Below are positions 59 through 54,878 of a DNA stretch of 64,000 bases, one piece after another. The notes under the pieces were generated by a model. It had not been told where the DNA came from. It worked only from the letters and a program-made list of their open reading frames with translations, and did not search any database. A program made the translations under genes and the position numbers. Numbering within the stretch: the stretch's first letter is position 1; the number at the start of each line of letters is the position of its first letter. This DNA comes from an uncultured virus (IMG/VR IMGVR_UViG_3300028591_000116) (taxonomy: Duplodnaviria; Heunggongvirae; Uroviricota; Caudoviricetes), in IMG/VR virus record IMGVR_UViG_3300028591_000116; one strand, 5' to 3'.

Positions 59-229
59 TTAATTGTTTCTTATAGTTAATGCTTTTATAGCACCAGCTGA
101 AGGATTCTTATTGGTTGATCTTGGTAATACTTGCATCTTAGTAACTTCGATTTTGCTAATTTTATTAGTTTTTTCAGAAGTCTTATTTTCTGTAGTATTA
201 CAATGACAAATTCGTTTTTTATTGTCCAT
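59..229 (-). CDS. small basic hypothetical protein (56 aa, MDNKKRICHCN...)
   Basis: Read by hand; ATG overlaps the end of 219..1679 (possible translational coupling); ends just before the hairpin. Confidence 0.45.
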   Translation of the reverse strand: MDNKKRICHCNTTENKTSEKTNKISKIEVTKMQVLPRSTNKNPSAGAIKALTIRNN

Positions 230-1679
230 TTATATATTCCTCGAAGAATCTAATGGTTACAACTTCATTATTGTCAGGATCATTCTTATCAGTTAAAATG
301 ATCTGACGCGGATTGTTTTTCACATCATCAAGTTTCAACCATAAAGTGAGAGTGTTCTCACCTTCATCAGCATCAAGTACTTCTGGTGTAAGTTCTGTAT
401 CGACTCCCCAAATAAGTCCACGACTAAGAGATTCGGGAGTAAATACGAAATCAAGAGCAAACCATTCATGAACACCGTCCTGCTGATTAGGATTAGTTGA
501 CAGCCAGCTATCAAGCTCATCATAACCTGCATAAAGATCAATGTATTTTTTACCATTTTCGATTTTTGTTTGGATATATACTTTACTCTGGTTAGCAGTT
601 TGATCTTTAGGTTCAGCATCGGCACTATTACCGTAAGCGCCTGTTCCAGCATGTACAGAATCAATAAACTTCGTTTCCCATACTTCAGGTTCTTTTATAA
701 CCTTAAATACAGGATAAAGAGTAATATCTCCACCAGTAAGCAATACATCATCTAATTCAATAGGATTACTTACAATTTCATCCTCTTTATTAGGCATAGA
801 AGTTATCCATCCAAGAAGTTTGGTCTTTTTATCATGATACATTCGCTCATTGTTGTCATCGATATCAAGTTCTCTTCTCGAAATCAAAGAATCAGCAGTA
901 TGAGCATCATTGTTTGTTAAAGGATAACAATAGGAAACATTTCTACCGTACTCGTCTATTTTAACAACGTCTGCGTCTTCTCCATCTTCATACAAATAAG
1001 CAGTTTTGCTGAAACGTACTGTTCCGCAAATGCTATTGCTTAATCGAGTTACATCAACTGGTTCATAAGGACTGCTAGCTGAAATAACATGGGGATTACA
1101 GATTACATCGACTACTTTCAACAGTCTGCTAGTATCAGGTTCATAATCATGTACTACCTGAGGGAGACCCTTCCAGAAATAGAATTTGTATTTTCCGATT
1201 TCATTAAGTGCTTTCTCGAAATCACATTTGCAATCTTCTCCATAGTTCTTAGGAGAATCTGAAATAAGAACACTGTATGAAGAAGCAAAAGGTGTTTCAC
1301 TTATAGTGATGTATGGAGCACGAAGCATCTTTTTCTTAGTAGTAAGATTAAATACCTCAAGAATGTCATAAATAGAATAAATGCAGAATACTGAAGATTG
1401 ATCTTTTGTTTCAGAATATCCGTTTTTATTGTAAATATGAGCAATATATAATGGTCCATAATTGCTGAAATTAATGAGACGTTTTACTCCGTCTTCATCA
1501 TAAATAAGATCAGCAAACATGTATAAAGCCGGAGTCATTTCAAACTCTGGTGTGAGCTTTACAGGAGCAGATTTGATAGCATCATTAACTGTTTTGAGGA
1601 TAGCATCTATTACTGACTCGCCAAAAACTCGCTTCATTATATGTATTTCTTGGGTAATAATTGTTGTATTTGTATCCAT
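219..1679 (-). CDS. hypothetical protein, probably virion-associated, with an InlB-B/Listeria-Bacteroides-repeat-like segment
   Basis: 486-aa ORF; GAGG RBS; late-type motif upstream; 'LLGW...DITLYPVFK' resembles that repeat. Confidence 0.6.
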   Translation of the reverse strand: MDTNTTIITQEIHIMKRVFGESVIDAILKTVNDAIKSAPVKLTPEFEMTPALYMFADLIYDEDGVKRLINFSNYGPLYIAHIYNKNGYSETKDQSSVFCIYSIYDILEVFNLTTKKKMLRAPYITISETPFASSYSVLISDSPKNYGEDCKCDFEKALNEIGKYKFYFWKGLPQVVHDYEPDTSRLLKVVDVICNPHVISASSPYEPVDVTRLSNSICGTVRFSKTAYLYEDGEDADVVKIDEYGRNVSYCYPLTNNDAHTADSLISRRELDIDDNNERMYHDKKTKLLGWITSMPNKEDEIVSNPIELDDVLLTGGDITLYPVFKVIKEPEVWETKFIDSVHAGTGAYGNSADAEPKDQTANQSKVYIQTKIENGKKYIDLYAGYDELDSWLSTNPNQQDGVHEWFALDFVFTPESLSRGLIWGVDTELTPEVLDADEGENTLTLWLKLDDVKNNPRQIILTDKNDPDNNEVVTIRFFEEYINGQ

Positions 1680-7418: not shown

Positions 7419-7490
7419 AAAAGAAAGCCGTTATCCAATTTATACTATATGAGACTTTCTTGTTAAAATATTAAACTATGTGTAACATTT

Positions 7491-7643
7491 TTATGCTACA
7501 GGATAAGAGTTTAATAATTTCTTAGTTTCTATTATTCGAGAAACTTTTTCCTTTTCAGGAATTTTGTTAGAGTTAGAAATAGCTCTGACATATGATCTTA
7601 GAAGCAGATCATTTAAAGATAATTTTATTAAATCATCTTTCAT
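7491..7643 (-). CDS. small protein (50 aa, MKDDLIKLS...) of hairpin-sORF module A
   Basis: Strong AAGGAGGTGA RBS; preceded by hairpin 7673-7698. Confidence 0.6.
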   Translation of the reverse strand: MKDDLIKLSLNDLLLRSYVRAISNSNKIPEKEKVSRIIETKKLLNSYPVA

Positions 7644-7732
7644 AGACTCACCTCCTTGTAGCGTAAAACTTTGAGAGGACCGCAGCAACGGTCCTCTCTT
7701 TTTGTTTATTACTACTTAGATTTGGTTTCATA

Positions 7733-7906
7733 CTAAGCTACTCTACCCATTGATTTAAGACAACGCTCCATTTCGCGTTTAAGACTATCTCTTTCCGAAT
7801 CAGATAAGTTGTCTTTGGCAACCATTTCGCGACAGCGTTTAACTTTTGCCATCTCAGCGATAGATTTTCTGTAGCTATTGTATAAATAAATTTTTTCGTT
7901 TTCCAT
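7733..7906 (-). CDS. small helical hypothetical protein (57 aa, MENEKIYLY...)
   Basis: Read by hand; AGGAG RBS upstream. Confidence 0.6.
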   Translation of the reverse strand: MENEKIYLYNSYRKSIAEMAKVKRCREMVAKDNLSDSERDSLKREMERCLKSMGRVA

Positions 7907-7950
7907 AATTCTTTTCTCCTATTTTATGGTATAAACTTTTTGGGATGAAT

Positions 7951-8178
7951 TTAAGCAGCCAGTTCAGTGAAGACTGGTACAGATCTTAAATATTTAGTAA
8001 TACTAGTAACTGAATATGAGTAGTAATTTGTACAATTATTAACGTCATAAACATTTACGTCTCGTACAATAATGTGATATTTGCTTATTGGTACAACGAC
8101 CATTCCAGCATAGTATTTTATCATATTATTGATCTCTTTTTCAGAGATAGTGTTCTTTGTGATTATAGATATGATCAT
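7951..8178 (-). CDS. small hypothetical protein, probably early
   Basis: GAGGAGG RBS; early-type motif upstream. Confidence 0.6.
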   Translation of the reverse strand: MIISIITKNTISEKEINNMIKYYAGMVVVPISKYHIIVRDVNVYDVNNCTNYYSYSVTSITKYLRSVPVFTELAA

Positions 8179-8242
8179 TTTTAAACCTCCTCAAGTTATA
8201 ATTTGATTTATCTATTTGGGTTATATCTTCGTCTATATTCAC

Positions 8243-8281
8243 TATTATAATATGAACGTGAAAGACTATGTTGCTTGAAAA
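8243..8281. repeat. 39-bp promoter-containing direct repeat (second copy 63716-63754)
   Basis: tattataatatgaacgtgaaag(a/t)ctatgttgcttgaaaa, one mismatch between copies. Confidence 0.85.
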
Positions 8282-8334
8282 AATTAAGATTAAAACAATA
8301 ATATGATCTAAATATAATAAAATTGGAGGCTTTT

Positions 8335-9592: not shown

Positions 9593-9761
9593 ATGTACCC
9601 CTCCTAAATATTTTTTATTTAGGTCCCACCCTTATGCTTAGCACTGTAGAATAGTAACCCTTTCTCTATTAATAGAATATGTACGTCGAGACACTTGTTG
9701 TGTAAAAAACACATTTTTTGACATCATAATGATTTCGAACAAATGTATTGTGGAGGCTATT

Positions 9762-12700
9762 ATGTCCGAAACAAAGAAATATATATCAATTCCTACTATA
9801 GACGACTGTAAATTGCCTAATTCACTTATTCGTAAGTGTAGAGAGGTATATAGCCAATATGGTAAGTGGAAATTGTATGATCTTCTTAACGCGGATCTTA
9901 ATAATCATACTCTTTATAATAAAGAACAACGAGATAGATTTAAGAATATCGAATTAACTAGAAGATATCTTTATCTTTACAGAAAAGCCATGGCTGAAAC
10001 ACTCAGCTTTGCTTATAATGTAGATCAGACAGATCTTTTAGACGAAGAAGCTCTAGAATTTGATAATACAAACGTTTGTCCTTATTGTGGGAAACCTTTA
10101 ACTCTTTTAACACAGATAGGTTCTAAGAAAGGATTTCCTAAATCACACTTCAATGACGTTGTTAAAAAATACGATAAGCATGTGCTCTTTAATAAGGTAC
10201 CTGTTAGATCAGGCATTAATATTACTCTTTCTGAGTTTTTGGATAGCATAAATCCTGGTATTCAAGTAGGATATTCTTTTGCTTTCTGGTCATTCTATAA
10301 TTCTAATAAAACCAATCTTAGTGAATTATTAGTTAATCCAGATGATCCTACTATTAAAATTGATGAAGAAGATATTGCTGCTATGGATCCTGATTCAGTA
10401 TCAGCTTTACAACCTCAAGGTGATATCAATCTTTTTAAATTCTTGGATCGCAACAAGTATATTACAAACGAAGAAGGCGTTCAAGAATTAAATGAGAATT
10501 ATGGTAAGTTGACTGTTTATGCGGTATTTAAAAGCGATACCGACGTTGTGTATACTATAAACAGAATGGATCTTACAGTTTACGTAAATGATATTATCGA
10601 TATATATTCTTCATCACTGAAAGTCAACGATTCAAATGCATATAAACCTGCTTTTGAATTTTTAGGTGGAAACGACAAAGATATTCTGTATGATTTCAAT
10701 TATATGGTTATTGATACAGATTCTACATCGGATGTTCCATCTTATGTACCTGAAAACAATTATTCAGAAAATAGCGATAAGTTAGCAGTGGATTATGTCA
10801 ATGGTTCAAATATAGACGTTATTGTAGTTTATTCTGCTAAGAGCATGGACAAGAACGAATACACTTATGCTAACTGGGATATGACTATTAGGCAATTGGT
10901 TGTTCAGAACTTCAAAGAACCTGTTTTAAAAGACGTTGTATATCGTTCTAAGTTTGCAGAAGACGGAAAGACTATTATTCCTGAAGAAGGATCTGAAGAG
11001 GTTGTAGGTGTATATAACTTCTTCCATTGGTCTCTGTATGAAGAAGGAGATGTTTATATCCTTGATGATGATAACTCTAAGTCGTTATTAAGAAACATCA
11101 CTTCTATTCTTGATAATAACTCTATCACGGTATATGCTTTGTTTAAGTATGATATCAAAATCGGTACTTATGCTTATGATGACGATTGTTACAGTTCATT
11201 ATATCACCTTTATAAAGGCATAGATAAAGCGTATGCGGGATATACTGATCCCGATAACAGTTTTGTTTATGAATATAGAGTTAACGAATTATTTACTAGT
11301 TTAGTTACTGGTGAAGACGAACTTATCACTAAGAAAGATCATAAACGACTTCCATTAACTAGTAAGATAATGTATACAGCATCTGGTGATGCATATGAAT
11401 TACTTGATGTGAATTATGTCTACAAAGAAACTATTAATGGAAAAGAAACTGTTATTGATATTCCGTATAGAATAACTGCTGAAGAATACGAAGCCTTACC
11501 AGATGGATTATGTAGAGGTATTTATGATGAGCAACGAAGTAACGTTTCTTATCGTGGATATCCTGTTACTGCTGGAGCTGGTGGCGGCGGAATGCGTTAT
11601 GTTAAGAATAACAAAATCAGAGTTATTCGATATAATGCTATTAGTAATAACGGTGTATTAAGTGTAGAAAACGGTAGAAGAACTCAGCATTTCTCTAATA
11701 TGGGAGATACTGAGGTTGAACTCACATACACTACACCTGGTAATTTCGAAATTTGGTATTACTTACCTAGACATCTTTGGTACATCTATGATCCAGAGAT
11801 TGATGCTGATAGACTTAATGCTCTTCAGACAACTTGGGTATTTAACTCGGATCCTTTAAATGAAAGTAAATATAGAACTACTGAACCTGATTCTTCAGAA
11901 ATCGATCTTTATACTAGATTCGTTAGTGCTAAGATGATTACTCGAACTGAATATCTTACACTTACTTCTGAAAACAAACGTAATTGTGTTATTGATCGAA
12001 TTTATTACGAACATCAGTGGGAAAATGAAACTTGGAATGAAACCGATCAATCAGGTAGAGTAATCGCTACGCATAATTACGAAATACAGGAAATCTTTAA
12101 CTGTAAGAGTATTTCTGAATATAACACGCAGGTTGGTACTTCTGACCTATCATTCGGTGTAGATACTAAATCTTATGCCGATATGACTAGAGAAACATTC
12201 AGAGTGTACCAATATCATGTATCTCTTGATAAGAACGTTGATACTTCTTCCGATTACAATCAAGATAATGAGATATCTTACGTAGAAAATGCTTGTGGAT
12301 TAGAGTTCAATGGTGATACTTGGCTGTTCCCTATAACTCGATCTAATCGAGAAAATTTCTTGAAACTTATTCTCGGAGCAGATACACAAGTAGTTAGAAA
12401 TGATTCTAGATTCTTAAGAAACGGAAAAACAATTTTTCTTACTCCTGATATATCGGATATTATAAATATTCCTGAAAACGAAACTTCTGCTGAAAAAGAA
12501 GCAAGAGAAGCATTATTAGATTATACTAGACTTAAACCAACTGATAATACTGGCGTTAACCAGTTGTATTACATATTGACTGGATTATGGAAATGTGTAA
12601 TGTTCACTAACGGTTATAGATTGGTTTATAGAGCCGGTGATAGAAATTGGCCTACTACTGGTGTAGAATCTGATTATGTAGCTAATGCTTGTAATGGAGA

Positions 12701-15700
12701 AATTCAGTTAAAAGATTTGGTTTACAAATACAATGCATCATTGCGTTTGGATATAGAACACTCTATAGATGAAACTAATAATCTGTATTACGTTCTTTTC
12801 AAGAATATCACTTTAATTTCTCCTGGTGCTTCTAATTACACATTCTATAACTCTAGTGAAGAAAATGTCGTTCTTGAAGATACAGTTGCTAGTATTGCTT
12901 ATACAACTAAGACAGATATTATTCCATTTGATGATTCAGTTCAATATGTGAAGTATTCTGATAAAGCAACTACTACATACGGTTACGGTTTGTCTTACAT
13001 GACACATCTTACAAAAGATACACTTAGATCTTACTTCACTGAAGATGCAGATAATAAAGCAAGACAATTCTTTGAAGAATTGAAAGCTAAACTTATAGAT
13101 CCCGAACAACCTGATTATTATGAAGAAAAGGTTGACGGAAACGGAAATACTTATTACGAGAAGACTGATAGAAACTTGAGGTATTATGATCTTAAAGATG
13201 TATCATACGATGATCTCGATGATTATCATTTGATTTCTCCTATCGTATTTACTAAAGATATTGATGGAGAGAATTTCGATGCTAAGAAAGAATACTTTAA
13301 GTTAGTAGACGATCGTTATGTTCCATTGGGATTAACTGGATACACTGTTGATAACAAAAACTATAAGATAACTGGTACATCGACACAATCATACATCAAA
13401 GGAGTTTATATAAAGCTTTGGTGGGAAGATATTTATGATCTTGTTACTGAAACTACTTTGATTAACGGAATTCAGATTGAAAAACTTAAAGCTCCTGAAT
13501 ACAATCAGATGTTGTATAGACCTGAAACAGATGTTGAACTTCAACTTAGACGCAATGAGTATTATGATACTTATGGTGTAAATCCTGTAACTGAAGAGAC
13601 TAAAAATACCAAGGTTATCGTTGAATTCAGCGGTAAACAAATACCATTTAGTCCAGAAGACGGATCTGATAGGATATACGAAAATAGTGTATATTCTAAA
13701 TGGGGTTCTTCGGCTGTAACTCTCGATAATGAATATCTTATATCTGGTGGATATCCAAATCCTTCTAGTAATATACGTACTGATGATCCTAGTGATAATC
13801 AGTTTATCGAAGAGAAAACAGAATTCTATGCAAACACTAGATCAATGAGAAGCTTATCTAAATCTTCAGTTTCTTATTCTGGCGATACACAATCTGTTAT
13901 TGAAAATAAAGAAGATGATTCTAATAGTACAATAAAAGATACTGATGTAAAAGAATTGGATGACCGTATTTGGTGGAACCAATTCAGTAAACGTCTTTCT
14001 GGTGAAGCTAAGAATATATTCATAACCGACTATGGTGTAAACTTTAGTGGCTGGATATGGACTGGTTGGAAAGAAGGTTATATTATAGACGGAGACAATA
14101 TTTTAGTTGGTGGAAACACTAAGAAAGTAGAAGGCGGTCTCATTGAAGCTTATCCGTTTGAATCTTCTAATAAAGCAAACTATGTAACTCAAGGATTCCA
14201 GCGTATTCTTTTCCCTAAGGATGTAAACTCTACATTTGAAACAGAACAATATGACACGACTGATGATGGTGTAATTAATACACACAACAGAGTTGAAGGT
14301 GACGGTTTAAGTTCAGAATTAGTTAATAGAATTGATTCTGAAACAGGTGAACCTTTAAGACTGCTAAGATACTGTAGTAATCAGTCTTGTGAAATGTATC
14401 TTAAACGTCTGGATAAACGCAAGTGGTCTTTCAGAAACAGAGATGTTGGTGTTCAGACTACAAACAGTTTGAATTCACTATACAACATTATGGCTCTTGA
14501 CGAGTATCTGCTTCCTATTGGAAAAGACGGATCTTTCAAGAATTATAAAGCTACTAAATTTGCTGCTACTGAACCTGATAAAACAGCTAAATTTGGTATA
14601 TCAGATGTACCTAAGTTAGTAACTGTTGAACCAGTAGACGAAAACAGTGTTGAATTCGGTGGTTGGACGCTTGACAAATATCCGTGGCATTACGGTGAAG
14701 ATGAAGCTACTAAACAGAAATATAATGAATACGTTCGTTATTATCTCCATCGTGGTGGTAATGCCCTTCCTGACCCATTCAGATTCGAATTTGAATGGAA
14801 GTATGCTACGAATGAATTCTCTAATACAAAAATGAGTGGTTACGGTAACGGTTCTAATTTAGACGATACCACAACTCAGCTTGATACAATAAAGCAAATA
14901 AGTCATAGAACTAAGAATAGAATAGTTCCTATGGAAACTAGATCTATTCCTGAATATCAGCAAAAATATCTGGATGTATTGTTCAATACTTTTGAAAACG
15001 TATTCATACAACTTAACACTAATTCTTCTCCTTATTCTTTATTCAGCCAAGAAGAGATTTATGTTATGAATGAGATTTTAATAGATCTATTCACATTCAA
15101 CAAAAACTCTGATTCAGAACACATGATGGACTTCGTTAAGTTTAAACTTGATATAGTTACTCTCATGAATGACATGACTGAATACGAATTTAATCTTGCT
15201 AATTATTGGCACGATGGAGATTACGAATATAACAAACAGTTACTTGAAGATTTCTATTCTAGAACACACGGATCTAGTTCAGTTGAGGGATTAAAAGATC
15301 TGTCAGATGTTGAATTTGAAAAAGCAATACTTGGTACTGATTTGAATGAAGACAATCCACAGACTATATTCCCATTCTATTCTTGTAAACTCACTAATGA
15401 TACTTGGGATAGATATGAAAATCATCCTGTTAGACGTATCATCATTAAACGAGAATACACGCCAACAAATAATATGACTGAACGTGAGATCATAAATACT
15501 GTGTGGGGTGGAGATCCTAGTTATACAGGATATAAGTTTATGGGTTGGTATAAAGATCAGCTTACATTTAATAAATATTATCCTGATACTAGTGAAGGAA
15601 CCACAGTAATTGCGGCAGGTCATAAATTCGTTGCTTATCTTAGATTTGATGCTGGAACTTATGTAAATGAAGAATTCGTTGCAGGAACTAACAATATTCT

Positions 15701-18080
15701 TGGAACGTTTGAAAAAGCATTAATCACTTTCGAAGAAGGAAACGACATTTATCTTTTGTTTGACGTAGAAGATATTCCTTCTAGAATATGGTATATTGGC
15801 GAAGATACAATTAAAGATAGTTTAAAACTTAGACTTTCTGAACTTCATGAAAAACTCATGTTGCCTACAGAGTTCATGTGTAGCTTGTTTAATTTTATTA
15901 TTGCTCCAAAGCGATACAATATAGTTGAATCTGAACGTGGCGAAATCACTAGTTTACTGGTTGATTCTGGTGTTATTACTACACCTTCTAGCAAAAATGT
16001 ATTGAGTATAACACGACCAGCAGATTATATTAGTTACAAAGATGCCGTAATTTCTAAATCTTGGAATATGGCTACTAATGAGGAAACTGGTAAGAGCGTT
16101 AAGGAACAGTATTATATTATCTACAATGATAATAAATTTGATGCTTATTCTTTCTTTAATGAGGGATGGATCAAAGACGTATATGGTGAAGAAAATGCCT
16201 CTGCTAAATTCCCACTGTTACGTGATACTGAAAACCCTATTACTCACAACTCTTCAGGTAACAATACTCTGTTGAATATCATACCGTTCTCTACTAAGAA
16301 ATACGAATCTGCGTTAGCTTTAGTTTACGATAAAGGTATATTACTTGTAAATCTTACAGGCATTCATACTAAGACTGAAGATACACAGTGGATTAAACTC
16401 GAAGATGGAAGTAAGATCTTATCTCCTGAAAAATTGTTTAGTTCTGCTTCTCTTTCTATAGTAGATTGTAAACTAGATGAGTATAACGGAAGCAATAACC
16501 TTATAATCATTTCAGACAACTCACAAATAGCTTCTTTTGATCTTGATGAAGAAAAGATTTATAATCCTAACGTTAATTATTTAGCGGGAGTAGGTTATGA
16601 AAAACTTAATTCTACTAGAGATAAACTTCCTATAACGTTTAAGAAAACTGATGGTGTTAATGGAAGATCTACTACTTCTTTAAGAAAAGGTAGAGCTATA
16701 ACTGTTGTTGGAGAATCAGCTGCTACACTTATAGGCGAAAATGAAGAAAGATATGTTGAAAAACGTGTAGGTTTAACTATATTAGCAGGAACTCTTAGTC
16801 CTAATCCTTCTGGTTACGACGGAGATCCTTGGATTCTTATGTCTAAATATGCTAATTCTGGTTTACCTGCTTCTCTTTCTGATATCAATTACGAAAAGTT
16901 GTTAGATGCTGATAAAGACAAATACAAAATACATCCTAAACTCACAGTACAGTATGCTTGGGATAATAGTCCATTAAAGAATTATTCTCCTGATCCTACT
17001 ATCGATTACGAGTATATAGATGTGTATACAGATGAGTTTGATCAGTATACTGAAGGTACTTTCAAGATTTATCATAATGGTAATCTTATTAGTAAGAACG
17101 TTTATTTTAGTTATACTGACGAATTAAGAAAAGAATGTAAGATCTACAAGATAATTTCTATCAATTATTCATTTGTACGATTGTCGTTCTCTAATACTGG
17201 TACTGGATTCTACGATGAAGAATTCGAAGCTAGACTTACTAAAGAAAAACCATTGTACGCTTTCTATTATAAAACTGGTGTTGAAGTAGATGAGCACTAT
17301 GGTTACAAAATACAAACCACAGAAAATATAGTTGATGGCAGAGATACAATTATGTCTGATGCTTTCGACGAATATTTAAAAACTGATGGTAACAATTCAA
17401 GTTCTACGGACTTCAATAAAGTAAAAGAAATACCCGGTTGGAAAATAGTAAATTCTTTCACAGATTATACCAAGAATGTTGTAGATAAACTCGATATTAT
17501 TGAAAATATCAAAAAAATATTCCCTATTGAAGGATACGTTAACAGTTCCACAGGAAAATACGTTTATCAATACATCATTTCCGACGGATATATTTCACAG
17601 TTGATTCAGTGGGTTGATGGAGAAATTCAAATACTCAGTGAATATAATTTTGACGATAATAATGAACTCTTATACGTTAAAAATATAGACAGTGACTTGT
17701 CTACATATATGATCTTTAAAAATCAAAGAATAGTTAAACTTGAGACATACGAGTATGTTCCAAACGAAATTTCTATTCCTAGAATGGATAAGATTAGTTT
17801 CTTTGTTAAGACTGATAATCCTAATGATGAAACAAGTATATCTTACGTAACAGAAGATAAACGATTAGTCAATGTCTTATTGAATAGTTCTATTGTTGAA
17901 GCTGACAACCCAACAATTTATAATGAGAAGTCGTTAAAAGACGCATTTGAGAATATCACGTCGTTAATTAACTGTGAGATTCAACAGACTGAACCTTTTA
18001 AATATGTGTCTAACTATAGACGTTGGCATGTGTTACCTGGAAATGATAAGTCTAAACTTATTGAAGCTCAAATAAACTAA
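9762..18080 (+). CDS. giant (~2770 aa) probable virion/tail-associated protein
   Basis: Uninterrupted ORF; GGAGG before ATG 9762; late-type motif 9720-9732; several 'F.xW...TVYA.FK' repeat-like segments; no catalytic motif recognised. Confidence 0.65.
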   Translation: MSETKKYISIPTIDDCKLPNSLIRKCREVYSQYGKWKLYDLLNADLNNHTLYNKEQRDRFKNIELTRRYLYLYRKAMAETLSFAYNVDQTDLLDEEALEFDNTNVCPYCGKPLTLLTQIGSKKGFPKSHFNDVVKKYDKHVLFNKVPVRSGINITLSEFLDSINPGIQVGYSFAFWSFYNSNKTNLSELLVNPDDPTIKIDEEDIAAMDPDSVSALQPQGDINLFKFLDRNKYITNEEGVQELNENYGKLTVYAVFKSDTDVVYTINRMDLTVYVNDIIDIYSSSLKVNDSNAYKPAFEFLGGNDKDILYDFNYMVIDTDSTSDVPSYVPENNYSENSDKLAVDYVNGSNIDVIVVYSAKSMDKNEYTYANWDMTIRQLVVQNFKEPVLKDVVYRSKFAEDGKTIIPEEGSEEVVGVYNFFHWSLYEEGDVYILDDDNSKSLLRNITSILDNNSITVYALFKYDIKIGTYAYDDDCYSSLYHLYKGIDKAYAGYTDPDNSFVYEYRVNELFTSLVTGEDELITKKDHKRLPLTSKIMYTASGDAYELLDVNYVYKETINGKETVIDIPYRITAEEYEALPDGLCRGIYDEQRSNVSYRGYPVTAGAGGGGMRYVKNNKIRVIRYNAISNNGVLSVENGRRTQHFSNMGDTEVELTYTTPGNFEIWYYLPRHLWYIYDPEIDADRLNALQTTWVFNSDPLNESKYRTTEPDSSEIDLYTRFVSAKMITRTEYLTLTSENKRNCVIDRIYYEHQWENETWNETDQSGRVIATHNYEIQEIFNCKSISEYNTQVGTSDLSFGVDTKSYADMTRETFRVYQYHVSLDKNVDTSSDYNQDNEISYVENACGLEFNGDTWLFPITRSNRENFLKLILGADTQVVRNDSRFLRNGKTIFLTPDISDIINIPENETSAEKEAREALLDYTRLKPTDNTGVNQLYYILTGLWKCVMFTNGYRLVYRAGDRNWPTTGVESDYVANACNGEIQLKDLVYKYNASLRLDIEHSIDETNNLYYVLFKNITLISPGASNYTFYNSSEENVVLEDTVASIAYTTKTDIIPFDDSVQYVKYSDKATTTYGYGLSYMTHLTKDTLRSYFTEDADNKARQFFEELKAKLIDPEQPDYYEEKVDGNGNTYYEKTDRNLRYYDLKDVSYDDLDDYHLISPIVFTKDIDGENFDAKKEYFKLVDDRYVPLGLTGYTVDNKNYKITGTSTQSYIKGVYIKLWWEDIYDLVTETTLINGIQIEKLKAPEYNQMLYRPETDVELQLRRNEYYDTYGVNPVTEETKNTKVIVEFSGKQIPFSPEDGSDRIYENSVYSKWGSSAVTLDNEYLISGGYPNPSSNIRTDDPSDNQFIEEKTEFYANTRSMRSLSKSSVSYSGDTQSVIENKEDDSNSTIKDTDVKELDDRIWWNQFSKRLSGEAKNIFITDYGVNFSGWIWTGWKEGYIIDGDNILVGGNTKKVEGGLIEAYPFESSNKANYVTQGFQRILFPKDVNSTFETEQYDTTDDGVINTHNRVEGDGLSSELVNRIDSETGEPLRLLRYCSNQSCEMYLKRLDKRKWSFRNRDVGVQTTNSLNSLYNIMALDEYLLPIGKDGSFKNYKATKFAATEPDKTAKFGISDVPKLVTVEPVDENSVEFGGWTLDKYPWHYGEDEATKQKYNEYVRYYLHRGGNALPDPFRFEFEWKYATNEFSNTKMSGYGNGSNLDDTTTQLDTIKQISHRTKNRIVPMETRSIPEYQQKYLDVLFNTFENVFIQLNTNSSPYSLFSQEEIYVMNEILIDLFTFNKNSDSEHMMDFVKFKLDIVTLMNDMTEYEFNLANYWHDGDYEYNKQLLEDFYSRTHGSSSVEGLKDLSDVEFEKAILGTDLNEDNPQTIFPFYSCKLTNDTWDRYENHPVRRIIIKREYTPTNNMTEREIINTVWGGDPSYTGYKFMGWYKDQLTFNKYYPDTSEGTTVIAAGHKFVAYLRFDAGTYVNEEFVAGTNNILGTFEKALITFEEGNDIYLLFDVEDIPSRIWYIGEDTIKDSLKLRLSELHEKLMLPTEFMCSLFNFIIAPKRYNIVESERGEITSLLVDSGVITTPSSKNVLSITRPADYISYKDAVISKSWNMATNEETGKSVKEQYYIIYNDNKFDAYSFFNEGWIKDVYGEENASAKFPLLRDTENPITHNSSGNNTLLNIIPFSTKKYESALALVYDKGILLVNLTGIHTKTEDTQWIKLEDGSKILSPEKLFSSASLSIVDCKLDEYNGSNNLIIISDNSQIASFDLDEEKIYNPNVNYLAGVGYEKLNSTRDKLPITFKKTDGVNGRSTTSLRKGRAITVVGESAATLIGENEERYVEKRVGLTILAGTLSPNPSGYDGDPWILMSKYANSGLPASLSDINYEKLLDADKDKYKIHPKLTVQYAWDNSPLKNYSPDPTIDYEYIDVYTDEFDQYTEGTFKIYHNGNLISKNVYFSYTDELRKECKIYKIISINYSFVRLSFSNTGTGFYDEEFEARLTKEKPLYAFYYKTGVEVDEHYGYKIQTTENIVDGRDTIMSDAFDEYLKTDGNNSSSTDFNKVKEIPGWKIVNSFTDYTKNVVDKLDIIENIKKIFPIEGYVNSSTGKYVYQYIISDGYISQLIQWVDGEIQILSEYNFDDNNELLYVKNIDSDLSTYMIFKNQRIVKLETYEYVPNEISIPRMDKISFFVKTDNPNDETSISYVTEDKRLVNVLLNSSIVEADNPTIYNEKSLKDAFENITSLINCEIQQTEPFKYVSNYRRWHVLPGNDKSKLIEAQIN

Positions 18081-18087
18081 CAATATT

Positions 18088-18116
18088 CTCTCCCTCATTA
18101 AGAGGGAGAGTTTTTT
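18088..18116 (+). terminator. intrinsic terminator
   Basis: ctctccctc-attaa-gagggagag followed by T6. Confidence 0.85.
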
Positions 18117-18154
18117 AATCTATTAAAAACTATATTTGTATATACTTTATATTG

Positions 18155-18904
18155 AGTGGAGTATACTTTATGTGTGGTAGGTATATTTCTGCATGGTAGG
18201 AAATTGTTATCTTACACCAAGATAGCTGTTAGATACCAGTGATGAGTATAATTTGGTCAGGTGAATTGATGACTGGGTTATATGTGGATTTTCACAAAAT
18301 CGTGCGAGTTATAGACTTCTCGTAAATTCCAGAAATAAAAGAAGGGCACGTCATGTTAGGTCGATTCCGTCACTTCCAACAGTGGGTAAGACCGAGTATT
18401 GATTAGTGTACAGTGAAAGTTCGAAACTGAGAGTGGACAAAGTGCGTAGCAATTGGATGAAACTCTCTAGCGGTCAACGGATTTCGGTCTAGTTTGGGTG
18501 CAGTACAACATATATAGCTTACATATAATTTTAACGTGGGATAGCAAAATGGAAGAAGGTACTGATTGACTTTGGTAGATACATGTGGTGTTATGTATTT
18601 ATTGAGGAACATGTATACACAATATTATTGATAGACTTCAACACTATTGAGAAGAAAAAAGGAAAATCTCAATGCTAGATATAGCCGAACGGTTGTGGTT
18701 ATAACGTACCGCAATAGTGGTTGAGCAACCCACACTCACCTTATCAGCAACCAAAACCCTGTCGTCAGCCATCAGTGTCTTAGCTCAGACAAAAATAAGA
18801 GGAGGCTGAGGTCACCATTAGGAGGATTGATAAAGATTCCTATCGTGGTGTAACAATACCAGAACTTTGGGAGGGTCTTAGACCCTCCTGTCATTTTTTT
18901 TTTT
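18155..18904 (+). ncRNA. candidate large structured non-coding RNA (~750 nt), family unassigned
   Basis: No credible ORF, higher G content than flanks, many local helices, terminal hairpin 18870-18888 then a long T run; 5' end approximate. Confidence 0.5.
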
Positions 18905-19016
18905 GAATTCTTTAATCCTAATTTATTTATATATTTCTAAAAATAACTGGACACGATTATGAAAAACATATAGTATTTTTCACTCGTAGAAAGTAACTAT
19001 ATTTAAGGAGATTTCA

Positions 19017-21032
19017 ATGCAGATTAAACCTAGTAAAGTTAAATCTACATCTAATGACAAAATTGCCATTTTAAAAGATGGAAGAAAAATCGTAATGGAA
19101 ATCGACACTAAAGATTTGTTGAAAGATAAAGGTGCTAATTATTACGCTTTATTCACTGGTGCTAACGCATATTTTTTCGATAACCCAATCAATACAATTC
19201 ACAACTGTGTGTTAGTTAAGTGTGGTAAGAATTATTACATTCTTACAATTCCAATGCTGATATTGGATCTTATCTTCTGGAGAGCAAACGTGGTGTTCAA
19301 CATTCCTATAACTGCAAACGAAATGTACAGTTATGCCAAGGAACACTTAAATAAAAATACATTCAACAATATCACAGAACACGTTACTAAAATGCTCGTA
19401 GATTCACAGCAGAAAGTAACACCAGAAATCAGTAGATGTTTGGCTGATATCAAGAATAACTTATCTCGTTTCTCACAGAACTTCTCTTCTGTAAAATGTA
19501 ACACTCTGTCTATCTGGAGTATATTACAGTTTAAGAATAGAAATAAAGAGTTTAATACTTTATTTAATACAACTCTTGATCCTTCTAAAACTATTAAAGA
19601 GACAGAAATTATTGTAAAAGATTGTGAAAAGAGATTGACTAAGGTTATTGCAGAAGATGATCTTAACTGTTTTAAACCATACGTAATGTCTGGACGTCTT
19701 AAGAACGCACAGCTTGCAAAGGTTGTATGTACTGTAGGTACACGTCCTGATATCGATAAGACAATTATTCCTAGACCTATTACAAAAGGTTATATCCATG
19801 GTCTTCAGAATGTATCTGAATACTTTATGGAAACAATTACCGCACGCGACGCTATGATGACTAAAAATGATAACTTGCCACGTTCAGGATTCTTGTCTAG
19901 AAAGATCAATCGTCTTACTTCAGATATCGATATTAATTATAACGTAAAGGATTGTGGAAATACAAAATATCTCAATTACTTTATTGAAAACGCAGATTAT
20001 CTTGATATGATTGATGGAAAGTATATGCTGGATGAAAAGACTGGTAAACTTCGTGTAGTAAGTTACGAAAAAGATAAAGATTTGATAGGAACAACTATTA
20101 AACTTCGTACATTTATTACATGTAACTGTAAAGACGGCGTTTGTACTACATGTGTTGGTACAGTATCTACACGTCTTAAAGGAACTCGTCTTGGTACACT
20201 TCCACCAATCAAATGTATTAACCCTATGTCACAGAAAGCATTGTCTGCTAAACATGACTTGGGTACAAAGTCAATTGATATCACAAACGAAGCTTTGAGC
20301 AAATACTTCCATTCTGACGGTATGGATTTCTTCCTTAAGCCAGAATACTCATCTCAAAGAGATTTGTATTTAGTAATACAGTCAGATTCAGTTGAAGATT
20401 TGATTAACTCAAATGTTGATACTTCAGACGATGAAGTTGACACTGTTATCGCATTGGATTACATAGCGGTTAGAGATCATGGCATTGACTATGAAATCGA
20501 AAATGAAGGTATGCGTATTGCGTTGTCCGATGAACTGCTTGCAAATAAGAAGTTGTTCACTGAAGATGAAGAAAACTCTGATAATATTTTGATTCCATTG
20601 AACAAACTTGAATCTTCTGAAGATCCATTGTTCTATGCAATACTTGATACTGAAGAGATTTCAAAATATCTTAATCAGTTGATTGGAACTATTGATAGAA
20701 ATACAGTTAACAGATATCAGACATATGAAGAATTGATGTCTGCTATGATAAGAATTATCTATGAATCCGGATTTGTTGATAATATTATTCACTTTGAATC
20801 TATTGCTAAAAGTATGATTCGTTCAAAGAAAAATAAGACACTAAAACCAGATTGGTCACAGGATAAAGTCGAATATCAGATTCTTAAGATATCAGATGCT
20901 ATTATGAATAAAGATTTATATACAGCAATTGAATATCAGAATCTGCGTAACTTGTTCAAAACAGCTTCAATTGCTAAGCGAGCAGGAGTTTCGCTTTACG
21001 ATCCATTCTTTAGAGTGTCTAAAGATAGATAA
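19017..21032 (+). CDS. phage multisubunit RNA polymerase beta' C-terminal subunit (phiKZ gp74-like, probably non-virion RNAP)
   Basis: Bridge-helix region GL..SEYF...AR...SG.LSRK..RL, DCG, Zn site R..ITC...GVC..C.G, trigger-loop-like NPMSQKALSAKH; followed by a helicase as in phiKZ gp74-gp75. Confidence 0.9.
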   Translation: MQIKPSKVKSTSNDKIAILKDGRKIVMEIDTKDLLKDKGANYYALFTGANAYFFDNPINTIHNCVLVKCGKNYYILTIPMLILDLIFWRANVVFNIPITANEMYSYAKEHLNKNTFNNITEHVTKMLVDSQQKVTPEISRCLADIKNNLSRFSQNFSSVKCNTLSIWSILQFKNRNKEFNTLFNTTLDPSKTIKETEIIVKDCEKRLTKVIAEDDLNCFKPYVMSGRLKNAQLAKVVCTVGTRPDIDKTIIPRPITKGYIHGLQNVSEYFMETITARDAMMTKNDNLPRSGFLSRKINRLTSDIDINYNVKDCGNTKYLNYFIENADYLDMIDGKYMLDEKTGKLRVVSYEKDKDLIGTTIKLRTFITCNCKDGVCTTCVGTVSTRLKGTRLGTLPPIKCINPMSQKALSAKHDLGTKSIDITNEALSKYFHSDGMDFFLKPEYSSQRDLYLVIQSDSVEDLINSNVDTSDDEVDTVIALDYIAVRDHGIDYEIENEGMRIALSDELLANKKLFTEDEENSDNILIPLNKLESSEDPLFYAILDTEEISKYLNQLIGTIDRNTVNRYQTYEELMSAMIRIIYESGFVDNIIHFESIAKSMIRSKKNKTLKPDWSQDKVEYQILKISDAIMNKDLYTAIEYQNLRNLFKTASIAKRAGVSLYDPFFRVSKDR

Positions 21033-28853: not shown

Positions 28854-31085
28854 TTATTTATAAGTAAAGAAGTTTTCTTTGTATCTTGCACCATTATTGG
28901 TTTGGTTAACCTTGTTAAGTCTAGCATTAGATGCATTTCGAAGTTTATTATCGATACCTGTATTCATACGAGTATCTCCATGTTTAACTTCGGCTGCATG
29001 TAAAGACGCTACACATAACTTAGCTAGTTTCTGCACGCGAGTCAACATATCGTACATCGCGCCAGATGTTTGAATACATCTAGCTTTCTGATCGATAGCA
29101 AGATCAAGTCCATCAACAATACCGTTTTCAATAGCTTTAGCTAACTTTTTATTCAAGCTAGCTTCATCTGCATCTCCGCCTTCAATATCTTCACTCTTAC
29201 GTTTCAAAGAGTTAGCATAGTTCTTATAGTTTAATTCCAAGCTATTATTAACGTCCGCTACAATCTTGTGATTGAAATTCTGAGTGATAGAATTTGAAAC
29301 CTTTTTAAACAGTTCATCAAAAGATTCCAATTTCTGAGGGTGAGCAAATACAGTTATGCTATCTGGTGTACTGAAGATATCGCTTACTGATTGTTCAGTA
29401 GGCTCTTCTTGAGAATTATCCAAGAACAGAGAAGTGACAATATGATTAGCAGTAGGGAATTCTCCATTTTCAACAATACCTTCAGGAGTAAAACCATAAA
29501 TATCATTATCCTGGAAAATACATCTAGCAATTCTAACTATTGCTTCATTCTTTATAGCAAGTTGAACACTCTTAGGATCTCTAGGATCTTCTATTTTATA
29601 ATCCTTACAGAATCCTTTAACAACGTTCATTTTAGCATTAATATCAGAAGCAGCCGCTACTCGTCTAGAAAGATCAATCATTCCCTGGAACATTTTGTTT
29701 GTTTCAGTCACAAGCTTACTAAGATATTTAGGTGCTGAATTGGCAAGGATAAGTGTAGGATCTCCTTTCATTTTATTTTCAGTTACAGTAGCTTCACTAC
29801 CGTATCTGGAGTACATAGAAGGAATACGTCCGTACCATTTTTTGAAATAAGCAGAGTTGATTTTAGCCTTCATCTTAGCAGGTTTAACTCGTCTAACCTC
29901 ATTCCATATATTATTGAGTTTAGAGAACTTTGCCTTGTATTTATCGTCGATCTTATTTACAGCAAAGCTGTTTGAATTAATAACGTTACTCTTAAGTTGC
30001 GACTTACCAAAATCGTAAGCAGAGTCTATAGCTTCAAGACTTCGTTTTCCTTTGATATCAACAAGCATAAGGCGATAAACGTCGTGTGCTGAAGAAGGAT
30101 AGAAATCGCGATGACAAATATTCAAATGTGTATCAAGTTTCAAATCTTCATCAATAGGAGGTTCTTTTCCTGTTATTGCGTCTGTTATGACGTCAACTAT
30201 AAAACTAACTGCCTGGAGATTATTAACTCTTGTGAGATTGATAATCTTATAATAAAGATAAATCAGTTTACTCAATCTATCATATAAATCTGTTTCCATC
30301 ATGAAAGCTCTAGTGTTTTCATCGTTATGAATAGCTGACAGGATAGTAGAAGCATCTTTCAATACACTGATATTACCGCTATTATTTATTTCTCTATCAA
30401 GATGCTCTATCTGTTTATAAAAAAGATTATCCAATTCAGATGTCAGACAATTCCTGTCATACAACGGGAATGTTGGCATTTTATTATCCTTTGAATAATA
30501 GAAATTTGTAGTCAAAATGTTTAATATACTATTGACACTTTCGTTATCAATAGTCAATCCAGCATTCTTATATTTATCAATTTCAGTATTTGAATAGATG
30601 TAGTTAATAAGATCTGTGAATCGTTTTTCTGAGTTTTCGCTTAAAATATTTACATTTCTATCAATGTTGTCGCCGCTATTGATGGCCTTTTCAAAATATT
30701 TATAATAATCCAGGCAAACGTATGATATAGCATCTATGATATGATCAAGAATACATAAATCTTCAGCAGCATTAAGTGATAGCATTGCTATAGGATATCT
30801 GATTTCATTTTTAATACTGTATTCGTTAATCTTATCTGCTAAGAATGCATAGAAATCGTCAACTGTTCCGTCTGTTCCTTCAGGCATATTTCTGTCTTCT
30901 GTCCAGAACTCGTTTAGAGTATTTATTTCGGCGTCAACTTCTTTTTTGATTTCGTCTCCATTAGTTGCTATACCTGATTTAAACATGTACAAAATGAAGT
31001 TAATTTTATTATAAGAAAGATTCAGTAAATCCTCTTTAGTAATTGTATTTAGTTCTAATTCTTTGAAAATCATGTTTTTCTCCAA
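28854..31085 (-). CDS. probable virion head protein
   Basis: 743 aa; late-type motif 31106-31118; internal RSLEA candidate processing site. Confidence 0.55.
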   Translation of the reverse strand: MEKNMIFKELELNTITKEDLLNLSYNKINFILYMFKSGIATNGDEIKKEVDAEINTLNEFWTEDRNMPEGTDGTVDDFYAFLADKINEYSIKNEIRYPIAMLSLNAAEDLCILDHIIDAISYVCLDYYKYFEKAINSGDNIDRNVNILSENSEKRFTDLINYIYSNTEIDKYKNAGLTIDNESVNSILNILTTNFYYSKDNKMPTFPLYDRNCLTSELDNLFYKQIEHLDREINNSGNISVLKDASTILSAIHNDENTRAFMMETDLYDRLSKLIYLYYKIINLTRVNNLQAVSFIVDVITDAITGKEPPIDEDLKLDTHLNICHRDFYPSSAHDVYRLMLVDIKGKRSLEAIDSAYDFGKSQLKSNVINSNSFAVNKIDDKYKAKFSKLNNIWNEVRRVKPAKMKAKINSAYFKKWYGRIPSMYSRYGSEATVTENKMKGDPTLILANSAPKYLSKLVTETNKMFQGMIDLSRRVAAASDINAKMNVVKGFCKDYKIEDPRDPKSVQLAIKNEAIVRIARCIFQDNDIYGFTPEGIVENGEFPTANHIVTSLFLDNSQEEPTEQSVSDIFSTPDSITVFAHPQKLESFDELFKKVSNSITQNFNHKIVADVNNSLELNYKNYANSLKRKSEDIEGGDADEASLNKKLAKAIENGIVDGLDLAIDQKARCIQTSGAMYDMLTRVQKLAKLCVASLHAAEVKHGDTRMNTGIDNKLRNASNARLNKVNQTNNGARYKENFFTYK

Positions 31086-35499: not shown

Positions 35500-36942
35500 T
35501 TACAAATACATGAGTTTGTTTCCATCTACAATATATGGAGAACGATAATTATAAATATCGCCAACATTACCAAAATATTCACCAACACGCGATTGTTCAA
35601 ACGATTTTAAACCTTTAAGATCAGTAGGCTTATTGAAGTCTATATCACTTGTGTCACCAAACAACTTGTCAGCGTCTAATCCTGTTACTGAAGAGTATCG
35701 GTCAATACCGTTAGCTCTATCTAGTTCAAATTTAGGATTGAGTAATTTGTTAGGAACCATACGAGGGTTGTATGAATTTCTAAAGAATAGCGCTTCTTTT
35801 TCAGTGATCATATGATTCATTGCATAGAACAATGCGTCTGCTGTGTTTTCTCTTCCGTTTCCAACTCCATAAGGATTAAGAGGATCACCATTACCTGTTC
35901 TACAAGTAAGAGCGCACTCAGCAATCATGTTAAATTCTCTAAAGAGAATAGGATCCATAGGACAAGCATGGTTGTATTGGAATGGAATAGACAGTTTCGA
36001 TAATGCTTGTATATCTATATCTTTTGTATGCATGATATTTGCAAATGGAATCATCTTAGGGAAAGCACCAGTATATCGTGTTGCTCTAATTATAGTCTTT
36101 TGATCTGTATCAAGAGTAAAAATGTAAATAGAACATGTATAATCGATAATACGATTTACTATATAATTTCTCTCAGGATGACAAACTCCTTTTGCTACAT
36201 AATGGATATAGTATACCCACATTAAAATAAGATAGAATACTGGAGATCCATAAATGTCTTCGAAAGTGAGAGTAATTTCACCAGGACCTCTTGATTCATT
36301 AATACCTGAACCGTAAACAAGATGATTACCAGAGAAGTTTGCATCAGTTTGTTCAGTTTCAAGAATTACATCTTTACCACCTGAAGATTCTGTACAAAGA
36401 TTAGATAAAACTGGTATAAATGGTGTTTGTTCGATTGGATAACTTAAACCGATTTCTTCGATATAAGATTCTTTTTCACCAGGACCAGGAATACTTCCTC
36501 GTCCACCAACCAAACCATCCCACGCAGTACCTTTAAGGATACCAAGTTCTCCCCAACTTAATTTCTCTAAATCGTTTTTCGATTCTCGTTTATATAATCC
36601 GCCAATAGCAATATTTTCTACTATTTTTGGATACATTAAAAATCTAGCTAAAGTAGTTCCTAATTTACTGCTACTAGCATAACTAAGAACTCGGCTTCGT
36701 TCAATGTTACCGACTGTTCTTAAATTTAAATTAGGTCTAGTTATGTATATTCTAGTACGTCCTTGTTTTTGAGGATCAACGAATATTTTTCCACTATTAT
36801 TAAAGAAACTTACAGCAGAAGATACTGGGTCTGCTTGGTTCAATCCTATATTATCAAGAACGTATGAGTAATACGTTTCTAATTCATCTAATAATTTTGA
36901 ATCTTTAACGTAATCGTATGAAGTAGGTGTTTCTACACTCAT
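35500..36942 (-). CDS. tail tube-like / baseplate hub protein
   Basis: ITRPNLNL, ITLTFED, W..YI..V..G, IDYTCSIYIF.LD and TGAFP..IP motifs of jumbo-phage tube-fold proteins; adjacent to the baseplate gene. Confidence 0.65.
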   Translation of the reverse strand: MSVETPTSYDYVKDSKLLDELETYYSYVLDNIGLNQADPVSSAVSFFNNSGKIFVDPQKQGRTRIYITRPNLNLRTVGNIERSRVLSYASSSKLGTTLARFLMYPKIVENIAIGGLYKRESKNDLEKLSWGELGILKGTAWDGLVGGRGSIPGPGEKESYIEEIGLSYPIEQTPFIPVLSNLCTESSGGKDVILETEQTDANFSGNHLVYGSGINESRGPGEITLTFEDIYGSPVFYLILMWVYYIHYVAKGVCHPERNYIVNRIIDYTCSIYIFTLDTDQKTIIRATRYTGAFPKMIPFANIMHTKDIDIQALSKLSIPFQYNHACPMDPILFREFNMIAECALTCRTGNGDPLNPYGVGNGRENTADALFYAMNHMITEKEALFFRNSYNPRMVPNKLLNPKFELDRANGIDRYSSVTGLDADKLFGDTSDIDFNKPTDLKGLKSFEQSRVGEYFGNVGDIYNYRSPYIVDGNKLMYL

Positions 36943-42455: not shown

Positions 42456-42496
42456 TAACTTTCGTCTCTCCTCGTTATCGGGGGGGGGGCGAAAAC
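42456..42496 (+). repeat. G-run/pyrimidine hairpin repeat, copy 2; likely terminator
   Basis: tttcgtctctcctcg-ttat-cg-G run-cgaaa; reverse complement of 14-56. Confidence 0.75.
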
Positions 42497-51675: not shown

Positions 51676-52443
51676 TTATAAAATAGCATCTTCTACTGGA
51701 GAATCAATCTGTTGACTTCCATTTCTTAATCGTGACACTATTGAAATAAGGTTATTTCTAGCATCACCAGAAGTAATAGAAGAGAAAACAGAACTGTATC
51801 TAGGTAGAAGTTTGATATTGATCATTTTCCATCTCATTTTATCGGTATGAGGATCTTCAGCTATCTTGTGTCTGAATGAACGAGACAAATTTTTAGGATC
51901 TCTACACAACTCAGATACAATAAGTTCAATAGAAGATTGAGACATTGCTGAAAGACCAACGCCGTTATATGCAGAAGCATCAGACCAATACTGTGCTATT
52001 TCATCATAAGGTATAACATTAGGGAAATATCCAGAAGTCATAAGATCAAGAACAATACTTGCTACTTTTGAATCCTGTGTGATGTTAACGTTTTGAATAA
52101 AAGCATCGCCTTGTTTATAAGTAAGATTGATATATTTATCGTCTTCTCCCTTATGTCTAACATCTGTTATAGAAGAAGGACAAGTAATAATCATACCAAT
52201 ATGCTTAAAGAATACATTTCTAGCATGATTCTTCTCAACATCTTCTTCAGTGTCATAGACTTTTATCTCAATTAGACCAAGTATTTTAACATCTTTACCG
52301 ACGATTTCGGCAATTTTATGATCTATAAATTTTTCAGGAAATTCAATTTCCGCTTTGGCACAAGTAAAAACTACACTTCCGTCTTTTTGTTGCTGAAGGA
52401 AGTCTATTTTATCAGGTGCGAATTTAGTTAATTTATGGGACAT
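51676..52443 (-). CDS. putative small beta' C-terminal subunit of the virion RNA polymerase
   Basis: IELIVSELCRDP...R...INI..LP..SS.FS.I...D...L...SP.E parallels the C-terminus of 19017..21032 and of beta'; late-type motif upstream. Confidence 0.5.
   Translation of the reverse strand: MSHKLTKFAPDKIDFLQQQKDGSVVFTCAKAEIEFPEKFIDHKIAEIVGKDVKILGLIEIKVYDTEEDVEKNHARNVFFKHIGMIITCPSSITDVRHKGEDDKYINLTYKQGDAFIQNVNITQDSKVASIVLDLMTSGYFPNVIPYDEIAQYWSDASAYNGVGLSAMSQSSIELIVSELCRDPKNLSRSFRHKIAEDPHTDKMRWKMINIKLLPRYSSVFSSITSGDARNNLISIVSRLRNGSQQIDSPVEDAIL

Positions 52444-52904: not shown

Positions 52905-54878
<1,974 letters not shown>

Follow-up and report, generated by a model that had tools for sequence, protein, structure and literature searches.

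Positions 18171/18181 to approximately 18863 of the virus DNA analysed here, a stretch of 64,000 nucleotides hereafter called the window, are best explained as an RNA gene, the product of which would be non-coding, trans-acting, stable and highly expressed and would belong to a family outside Rfam, a reading given a probability of roughly three in four. The RNA would be about 0.68 kb long, and at most about 0.72 kb should it include the terminator hairpin. The family is probably new and of the same kind as GOLLD and ROOL, being set apart from both by their Rfam models, and its carriers are, with similar confidence, AT-rich jumbo phages of the ruminant gut with a split RNA polymerase of the AR9/phiKZ type. 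A large non-coding RNA had been proposed at this place in an earlier note on the window; the proposal is supported mainly by expression, and also by the distribution of indels, by a distant homolog and by two covarying stems.

The gap, its neighbours and the RNA contigs

The window is AT-rich (approximately 30-35 % GC), with tightly packed genes, most of which are on the plus strand. When open reading frames of at least 100 amino acids were considered, the longest gap was 18081-19016 (936 nt), and the region is thus indeed the longest non-coding gap in the window, as claimed earlier. The runner-up, 7419-8322 (904 nt), contains minus-strand ORFs of 57-87 amino acids; the longest ORF within 18155-18904 has 69 amino acids and is also on the minus strand (18403-18612). 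The GC content was 0.39-0.445 across 18200-18899, compared with 0.24-0.335 in the flanks, and the GC skew was +0.20 to +0.45 across 18000-18699 (G > C), in agreement with the description of the region as G-richer than its flanks.

The upstream gene (9729-18080) encodes 2783 amino acids, for which no PHROG family was found and the sole Pfam match was the repeat Flg_new, below threshold (17.5 bits, cut-off 27). The gene on the other side (19017-21032) encodes a beta-type subunit of a phage multisubunit RNA polymerase (PHROG 3015, E 1e-64), the closest GenBank relatives of which are from the Bacillus jumbo phages PBS1 and AR9 and their kin (28 % identity). Genes for virion, baseplate and terminase proteins are found downstream of it. 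ARAGORN identified no tRNA or tmRNA gene in the 64-kb window.

A word search of public sequencing runs with 16500-20500 returned nine runs from sheep and bovine gut, eight of them recorded as RNA, each containing just 5-15 % of the words of this region. Contigs were aligned from four of the nine, all of them RNA and each from a different study (four studies), the runs having been chosen through the stretch itself. Contigs confined to approximately 18171-18865 were present in all four (Table 1). In run X3 the flanks were assembled on separate contigs (16500-18051, depth 12.9, and 18978-20500, depth 12.0), and the flanking-gene contigs of X3 and X7 were approximately 93 % identical to the window. 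The contrast in depth between the RNA and its flanks comes from X3 and X7, the two runs with assembled flanks, and is strong but rough; no strand, true end or level can be read from the contigs, and their ends are a hint from four studies. X2 and X8 had no contigs over most of the flanks, which is not counted as evidence. An RNA of about 680 bases appears to be discrete and very abundant in the RNA libraries. The earlier note had named a discrete transcript as a check on its reading and, as far as contigs can show, such a transcript was found in four of four runs.

Table 1 Features in and around the probable RNA gene, with the contigs aligned to it (positions in the window unless otherwise given)
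Feature	Position	Strand	Details
Intrinsic terminator of the 2783-amino-acid gene	18088-18116	+	9-bp stem 18088-18110, then T run
Presumed promoter region	18120-18180	+	Duplicated TATACTTTAT at 18141-18150 and 18162-18171; placed by position upstream of the contig starts
RNA as covered by contigs	18171-18865	+ (presumed)	Left ends 18171, 18184, 18185, 18202; right ends 18862, 18863, 18865
Run X2, one 661-nt contig	18202-18862		Depth 11.2; 0 differences from the window
Run X3, one 715-nt contig	18184-18863		Depth 1621.7; flank contigs 12.9 and 12.0
Run X7, one 418-nt contig	18171-18595		Depth 200.4; flank contigs 6-7.64
Run X8, three contigs	18185-18865		Depth 4.41-7.8
5' hairpin GTTATCTT/AAGATAGC	18206-18226	+	5' arm conserved: 18206-18217 vs L002 1394-1405, 11/12
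Conserved block AGTTAT..ACTTCT	18307-18320	+	12/14 identical to L002 1473-1486
Conserved core block 1	18347-18403	+	87 % identical to G001; 3-nt and 1-nt indel
Variable insert	18404-18527	+	124 nt (G001 42 nt); predicted long hairpin including GAGAGT/ACTCTC
Conserved core block 2	18528-18558	+	25/31 identical
Hairpin TTGTGGT/ACCGCAA	18692-18715	+	Loop region with conserved palindromic octamer GTTATAAC, 18698-18705
Helix TCAGCC 18765-18770/GGCTGA 18804-18809	18763-18811	+	G001 TAATCC/GGATTA, two double compensatory changes
Purine-rich AGAGGAGG, Shine-Dalgarno-like	18798-18805	+	Identical in both homologs
3' hairpin CACCA/TGGTG	18813-18850	+	G001 CACTT.../...AAGTG in 10-bp stem; two double compensatory changes
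Conserved single-stranded tail	18854-18865	+	10/12 identical; RNA contigs end here
Intrinsic terminator	18868-18904	+	10-bp stem (18868-18890) with 6 G-C pairs, then 11-T run; beyond the contigs examined
Genes with GACATTTAAATGA-like motif upstream	28854-31085 (-), 35500-36942 (-), 40553-42037 (+), 51676-52443 (-), 219-1679 (-)

The X3 contig carries 28 and 12 loose letters at its two ends which match nothing in the window and are presumably sequencing-adapter letters; if so, many library fragments would end exactly at about 18181 and 18863, the former position being reached from the left end at 18184 by three extra unaligned letters. The right ends of the contigs are 3-6 nt short of the terminator hairpin; either the RNA is cut before the hairpin, or random-primed cDNA cannot start in a stable hairpin followed by a U run. 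Both the terminator upstream of the region and its own terminal hairpin with a long T run, which had been described before, were found on the plus strand, and 17500-19500 contains three terminator-like sites, compared with 0.7 ± 0.8 in shuffled sequences. Transcription would begin at a phage promoter within 18120-18180 and proceed rightward, and the RNA would stop at, or be cut just before, the terminator at 18868-18904.

The TATATT-like motifs reported near 18130-18153 are present, but a sigma-70-type promoter was not called there. As a promoter motif, AACTATATTT (18128 and 18995) was not enriched in the window (19 matches, 22.6 expected), and TATACTTTAT was weakly enriched (30 compared with 19.7; 30 was reached in 3 of 100 shuffles). 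A GACATTTAAATGA-like motif recurs 20-45 nt ahead of the start codons of several virion-type genes and is a candidate phage promoter, possibly a late one; it is absent ahead of the RNA. Another promoter-like motif, the 15-mer TTATAATATGAACGT, is found ahead of two genes (8323 and 52905-54866, minus strand). A run of ten Gs at about 42470-42490, within the leader of the 42528 gene, may have arisen as an artefact of assembly or may be prone to slippage.

Since the contigs are blind to strand, the RNA could have been made from the minus strand, and the longer of the two adapter pieces in X3 is at the 18184 end. In dUTP-type libraries this would mark the 3' side of the RNA; the argument depends on library chemistry, and the minus strand could be indicated under one common chemistry. 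Both terminators, all neighbouring genes and the tRNA genes which flank the homolog described below are, however, on the plus strand, no minus-strand terminator was found near 18171-18184, and in both homologs the fold of the plus strand is favoured over that of the minus strand by 28-31 kcal/mol. Transcription from the minus strand is therefore considered quite unlikely.

Over 680 nt, the variant of the RNA in X3 shows 39 substitutions and 13 gaps relative to the window, whereas its coding flanks show 105 substitutions in 1552 nt and 100 in 1523 nt, without a single gap. With 13 gaps in 680 nt compared with none in 3075 nt of coding flanks, the stretch is evidently non-coding. The indels listed for the variants are of 1-2 nt, and single-base deletions at 18493 and 18538 (X3 and X7 variants) break the 69-amino-acid minus-strand ORF. 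An indel of 3 nt and another of 1 nt are found within the block which is best conserved in the distant homolog. No conserved ORF follows the Shine-Dalgarno-like AGAGGAGG: the reading frames after it are unlike in the two homologs, with an ATG and 8 codons in the relative but no ATG in the window.

A homolog in the tRNA island of a related jumbo phage

The only distant homolog of the RNA was found in an IMG/VR jumbo phage genome, hereafter G001, in which the RNA polymerase subunit is 75 % identical to that of the window. G001:145204-145264 matches 18347-18403 with 87 % identity (E 1.5e-13) and is followed by the second core block; the homolog extends over approximately 1385-2001 of the G001 locus L002. 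Seven collinear blocks can be aligned between the two RNAs (18206-18217, 18307-18320, 18347-18403, 18528-18558, 18698-18705, 18798-18815/7 and 18846/54-18865), and the spacers between them are unequal, as with the 124 nt (window) and 42 nt (G001) that separate the two core blocks. There is one copy of the RNA in each phage, and a model of core block 1 (R1) gave 90.2 bits and a single copy.

The G001 homolog is approximately 120 kb from the gap syntenic to that of the window. It is located in an ORF-free tRNA island of 2.2 kb, between tRNA-Asp/Gln and a second tRNA-Asp, and shares the orientation of the tRNAs; the conserved tail is 6 nt ahead of the second tRNA-Asp gene. The members of the island are tRNA-Asp, tRNA-Gln, a tRNA-like element, the second tRNA-Asp and an intron-containing (group I) tRNA-like gene, and the strand of all of them is that of the surrounding genes. 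The two tRNA-Asp genes (L002:947-1022 and 2007-2082) are identical, as are approximately 10 bases of their leaders, and between them is a cassette made up of tRNA-Gln, the tRNA-like element and the large RNA, an arrangement that would be expected had the tRNA gene served for the insertion or duplication of the cassette. The tRNA-like element (L002:1216-1301), directly upstream of the homolog, combines a T arm with a long extra arm; it has a weak tmRNA score (19.1 bits, E 5e-5) and was not called by ARAGORN. The tRNA-like gene just downstream of the RNA island (L002:2275-2530) is interrupted by the group I intron, which scores 41.2 bits with the Rfam model Intron_gpI (gathering score 50, E 2e-8).

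The syntenic gap of G001, between the same two flanking genes, shows no similarity to the RNA; it contains a short-repeat array and two small ORFs. In the array (L001:2000-2600) at least a dozen units, spaced by approximately 37-38 nt, alternate between GATACATT and GGATTTAAT; the array may serve as an origin or for the binding of a protein. The combined GATACATT/GGATTTAAT motif is absent from the window.

Because G001 keeps the RNA among tRNAs, the RNA is not tied to its neighbours. This bears on the proposal that it is a stable processed piece of a longer transcript, namely a trailer at the 3' end of the giant gene, or else a long structured leader controlling the polymerase gene at 19017. 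The RNA is on the same strand as both genes, no promoter was called for it, and the contigs break off at 18862-18865, immediately ahead of the hairpin, where a processing site could be marked. Terminators nevertheless separate it from the giant gene (18088-18110) and from the polymerase gene (18868-18904), and in G001 the RNA is 120 kb away from a syntenic gap which has no homolog. An origin as a processed piece is thus improbable, and a free-standing gene is preferred.

What is left of a mobile element, or of a protein gene in decay, if transcribed by chance, would account for the different genome sites of the RNA in the two phages and for the cassette-like position of the G001 copy between identical tRNA-Asp genes, and a 14-nt inverted repeat (18212-18225/18840-18853) frames the RNA in the window. 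The repeat is, however, absent from G001, and its pair probability in the fold was 0.0. No reading frame is conserved, the ORFs have at most 69 amino acids and that longest one is broken in the X3 and X7 variants, and RNA libraries cover the stretch at very high depth. Identity of 87-100 % is retained in short blocks between spacers that vary, and since decay does not yield such a pattern, this source is very improbable.

A role at the DNA level, as a replication origin, packaging site or regulatory site with incidental RNA, would fit the shift in GC skew in an ORF-free region and the origin-like repeat array in the syntenic gap of G001. The region itself has no iterons or repeat families, only two-copy matches of 10-18 nt; the repeat motif of G001 is not found in the window, the conserved blocks in G001 are instead among tRNA genes, and all four RNA runs gave discrete contigs. 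The probability of such an element is extremely small, and neither an origin nor a decayed gene, the alternatives which the earlier note had itself raised, is supported.

Exact-pattern scans of IMG/VR with core blocks 1 and 2, of JGI metagenomes with core block 1 and of GTDB genomes (no matches) recovered only G001. The polymerase subunit has 67 relatives (36-100 % identity) in a large protein collection; an alignment search found only three IMG/VR records encoding a related subunit, with G001 as the closest, and GTDB gave none. In two polymerase-bearing records, G002 and G003, no homolog of the RNA was detected by BLAST or with model R1, a result of little weight, these genomes being just 38 % and 23 % complete. 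A blastn search of GenBank phages (50,697 records) gave no matches with the window, and the G001 homolog was likewise unmatched. Two further candidates, L009 and L010, were both within a protein-coding frame and were rejected as chance matches.

Predicted fold and covariation

The region had been described as helix-rich, but its folding energy was within chance. For 18181-18863 the z-score was -0.95, 17 of 100 dinucleotide shuffles folding as well (minus strand z -0.92), and for 18155-18904 it was -1.05, with three of 20 shuffles as good. The five stems named in the earlier note are all in the sequence at the positions given for them, and four of the five are in the minimum-energy fold; the fold of the window prefers a shifted register for TCAGCC/GGCTGA, using a second TCAG at 18772. 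Because the window folds no better than shuffled sequence, the stems alone are no evidence of structure. The folding energy of the G001 homolog gave a z-score of -4.27, and none of 100 shuffles was as good.

In two of the named stems, TCAGCC/GGCTGA and CACCA/TGGTG, pairing is kept in G001 through two double changes each. One double change each was found in GGTC/GACC (18359/18390) and CTTCCA/TGGAAG (18373/18550). As a control, the 26 substitutions between the two sequences were relocated at random over 171 aligned columns in 2000 trials. At least two helices with two double changes were obtained in one of 2000 trials for stems of at least 5 bp and in three of 2000 for stems of at least 4 bp, and at least six double changes in one of 2000; in the set of blocks for which this covariation was significant, one block was introduced, and two were lengthened, once the helices had been seen. 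In the nine blocks defined a priori the covariation was not significant (at least three double-change helices in 338 of 2000 trials, at least two in 165 and at least one in 297). Co-located helices, counted in a test independent of the alignment, were no more numerous than in shuffles (289 compared with 292 ± 16), nor were they with other settings (19 compared with 18.8 ± 3.5, 37 with 38.9, 6 with 5.9 and 71 with 72.1), although in its five settings this test has little power in AT-rich sequence. Overall, only two to four helices are supported by the two homologs, and one loop-strand pseudoknot is a candidate.

The predicted fold would consist of a conserved core (18347-18403 and 18528-18558) split by a variable hairpin, and of a 3' domain in which two covarying helices surround the conserved AGAGGAGG. 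Core block 1 contains a nested hairpin, GGTC/GACC around CC..CACT-loop-AGTG..GG, with pair probabilities of 0.76-0.92. Its loop may pair with core block 2 (CTTCCA 18373-18378/TGGAAG 18550-18555), a contact with one compensatory change and an alternative partner at 18537, which alone is not significant. Further downstream, G001 has another stem (AAAG/CTTT) around the identical octamer GTTATAAC. The probability that AGAGGAGG is unpaired was high in G001 and low at four of eight positions in the window. For the 3' hairpin the pair probability was 0.94-0.96 in the window and 0.99-1.0 in G001. Two other candidate helices were rejected: the 14-nt inverted repeat mentioned above, which also competes with the covarying 3' hairpin, and a closing helix from RNAalifold (18351-18358/18532-18539), which had a probability of 0.0 in the window and 0.13-0.15 in G001.

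Relation to known large RNAs and possible role

The earlier note could assign no family by eye, and Rfam cmscan, the check it proposed, likewise gives none. All 4227 Rfam families were compared with the whole window without a match at gathering score; on 17900-19100, with E up to 10 and permissive filters, 16 scattered sub-threshold matches were obtained, none of them to a large RNA family and none credible. The RNA matches no Rfam model or ARAGORN call for tRNA, tmRNA, RNase P, 6S, group I/II introns or hammerhead, and the ROOL and GOLLD models were unmatched both in the window and at the G001 locus. A literature search of listings and selected passages returned no published description of the RNA.

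ROOL (Rumen-Originating, Ornate, Large) was first seen in rumen data and averages 581 nt, and both ROOL and GOLLD are often found near tRNAs and in prophages (Weinberg et al. 2017, PMC5737381). In a later preprint, ROOL is stated to match 16S rRNA in abundance in some cases and GOLLD to rise during lysis; both form RNA-only cages of unknown use, and in GOLLD the 3' region is conserved universally and the 5' region less well (bioRxiv 10.1101/2024.12.08.627333). As far as these accounts go, the present RNA is like ROOL in being large, phage-borne, abundant and from the rumen, with tRNA neighbours in G001 only and none in the 64-kb window. It differs from ROOL in leaving the Rfam model unmatched and in being carried by a jumbo phage of the AR9/phiKZ type. 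With GOLLD, as described there, it shares the combination of a better-conserved and a variable part in a large phage RNA, and the G001 copy is between tRNA genes. The GOLLD model of Rfam is unmatched, however, and the length of about 0.68 kb contrasts with the at least 800 nt of many GOLLD RNAs; the strongest conservation is 5'-central (18347-18403 and 18528-18558) and the 3' blocks are short, unlike the GOLLD pattern given there. Abundantly transcribed long RNAs beside tRNA genes, likened to GOLLD and ROOL, are reported for the staphylococcal phage K (PMC9241854). Compared by description only, they differ from the RNA of the window in belonging to another phage family, and the window has no DNA similarity to GenBank phages.

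The RNA could still be a strongly diverged member of ROOL or GOLLD, beyond the detection of the Rfam models. Its size class, its carriage by a phage, its abundance, the tRNA island of G001 and its source in the ruminant gut, where ROOL was first seen according to the account cited above, would agree with this. Rfam was, however, negative at gathering score in the window and with E up to 10 on 17900-19100, and at the G001 locus it gave only a tRNA, a group I intron and a weak tmRNA-like match. Such a relationship thus has little probability, and a new family of the GOLLD/ROOL kind is preferred.

As to what an RNA of this new family does, it is suggested only tentatively, by analogy and with the odds against it, that the RNA acts in lytic growth as a scaffold or decoy engaging the translation or tRNA machinery, and not as a regulator of a single neighbour. 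The hints from sequence toward a role in translation or tRNA metabolism are the conserved AGAGGAGG and the location in a tRNA island, and only these. A more elaborate version, which is considered unlikely, is that the RNA represents a third lineage of this kind, unrelated to GOLLD and ROOL, protein-free and multimeric through self-complementary loops, for which GTTATAAC would be a candidate contact, and that AGAGGAGG, conserved and exposed, holds small ribosomal subunits of the host or tRNA-processing factors during infection by a jumbo phage equipped with an RNA polymerase of its own. If this third lineage were true, convergent giant RNA assemblies would be a general strategy of phages, and an RNA abundant in the rumen would be a convenient one to solve.

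Few large structured RNAs have come from bacteria and phages, and what they do is an open question even after cryo-EM of GOLLD, ROOL and OLE. The RNA described here adds a family without detectable relation to these three, with the same hallmarks and in a different type of phage. Since it is conspicuous in public RNA data on the rumen across several studies, its ends, strand, fold and oligomeric state are testable on an in-vitro transcript, and no culture of the phage is required. The annotation of jumbo phage genomes, moreover, misses highly expressed genes.
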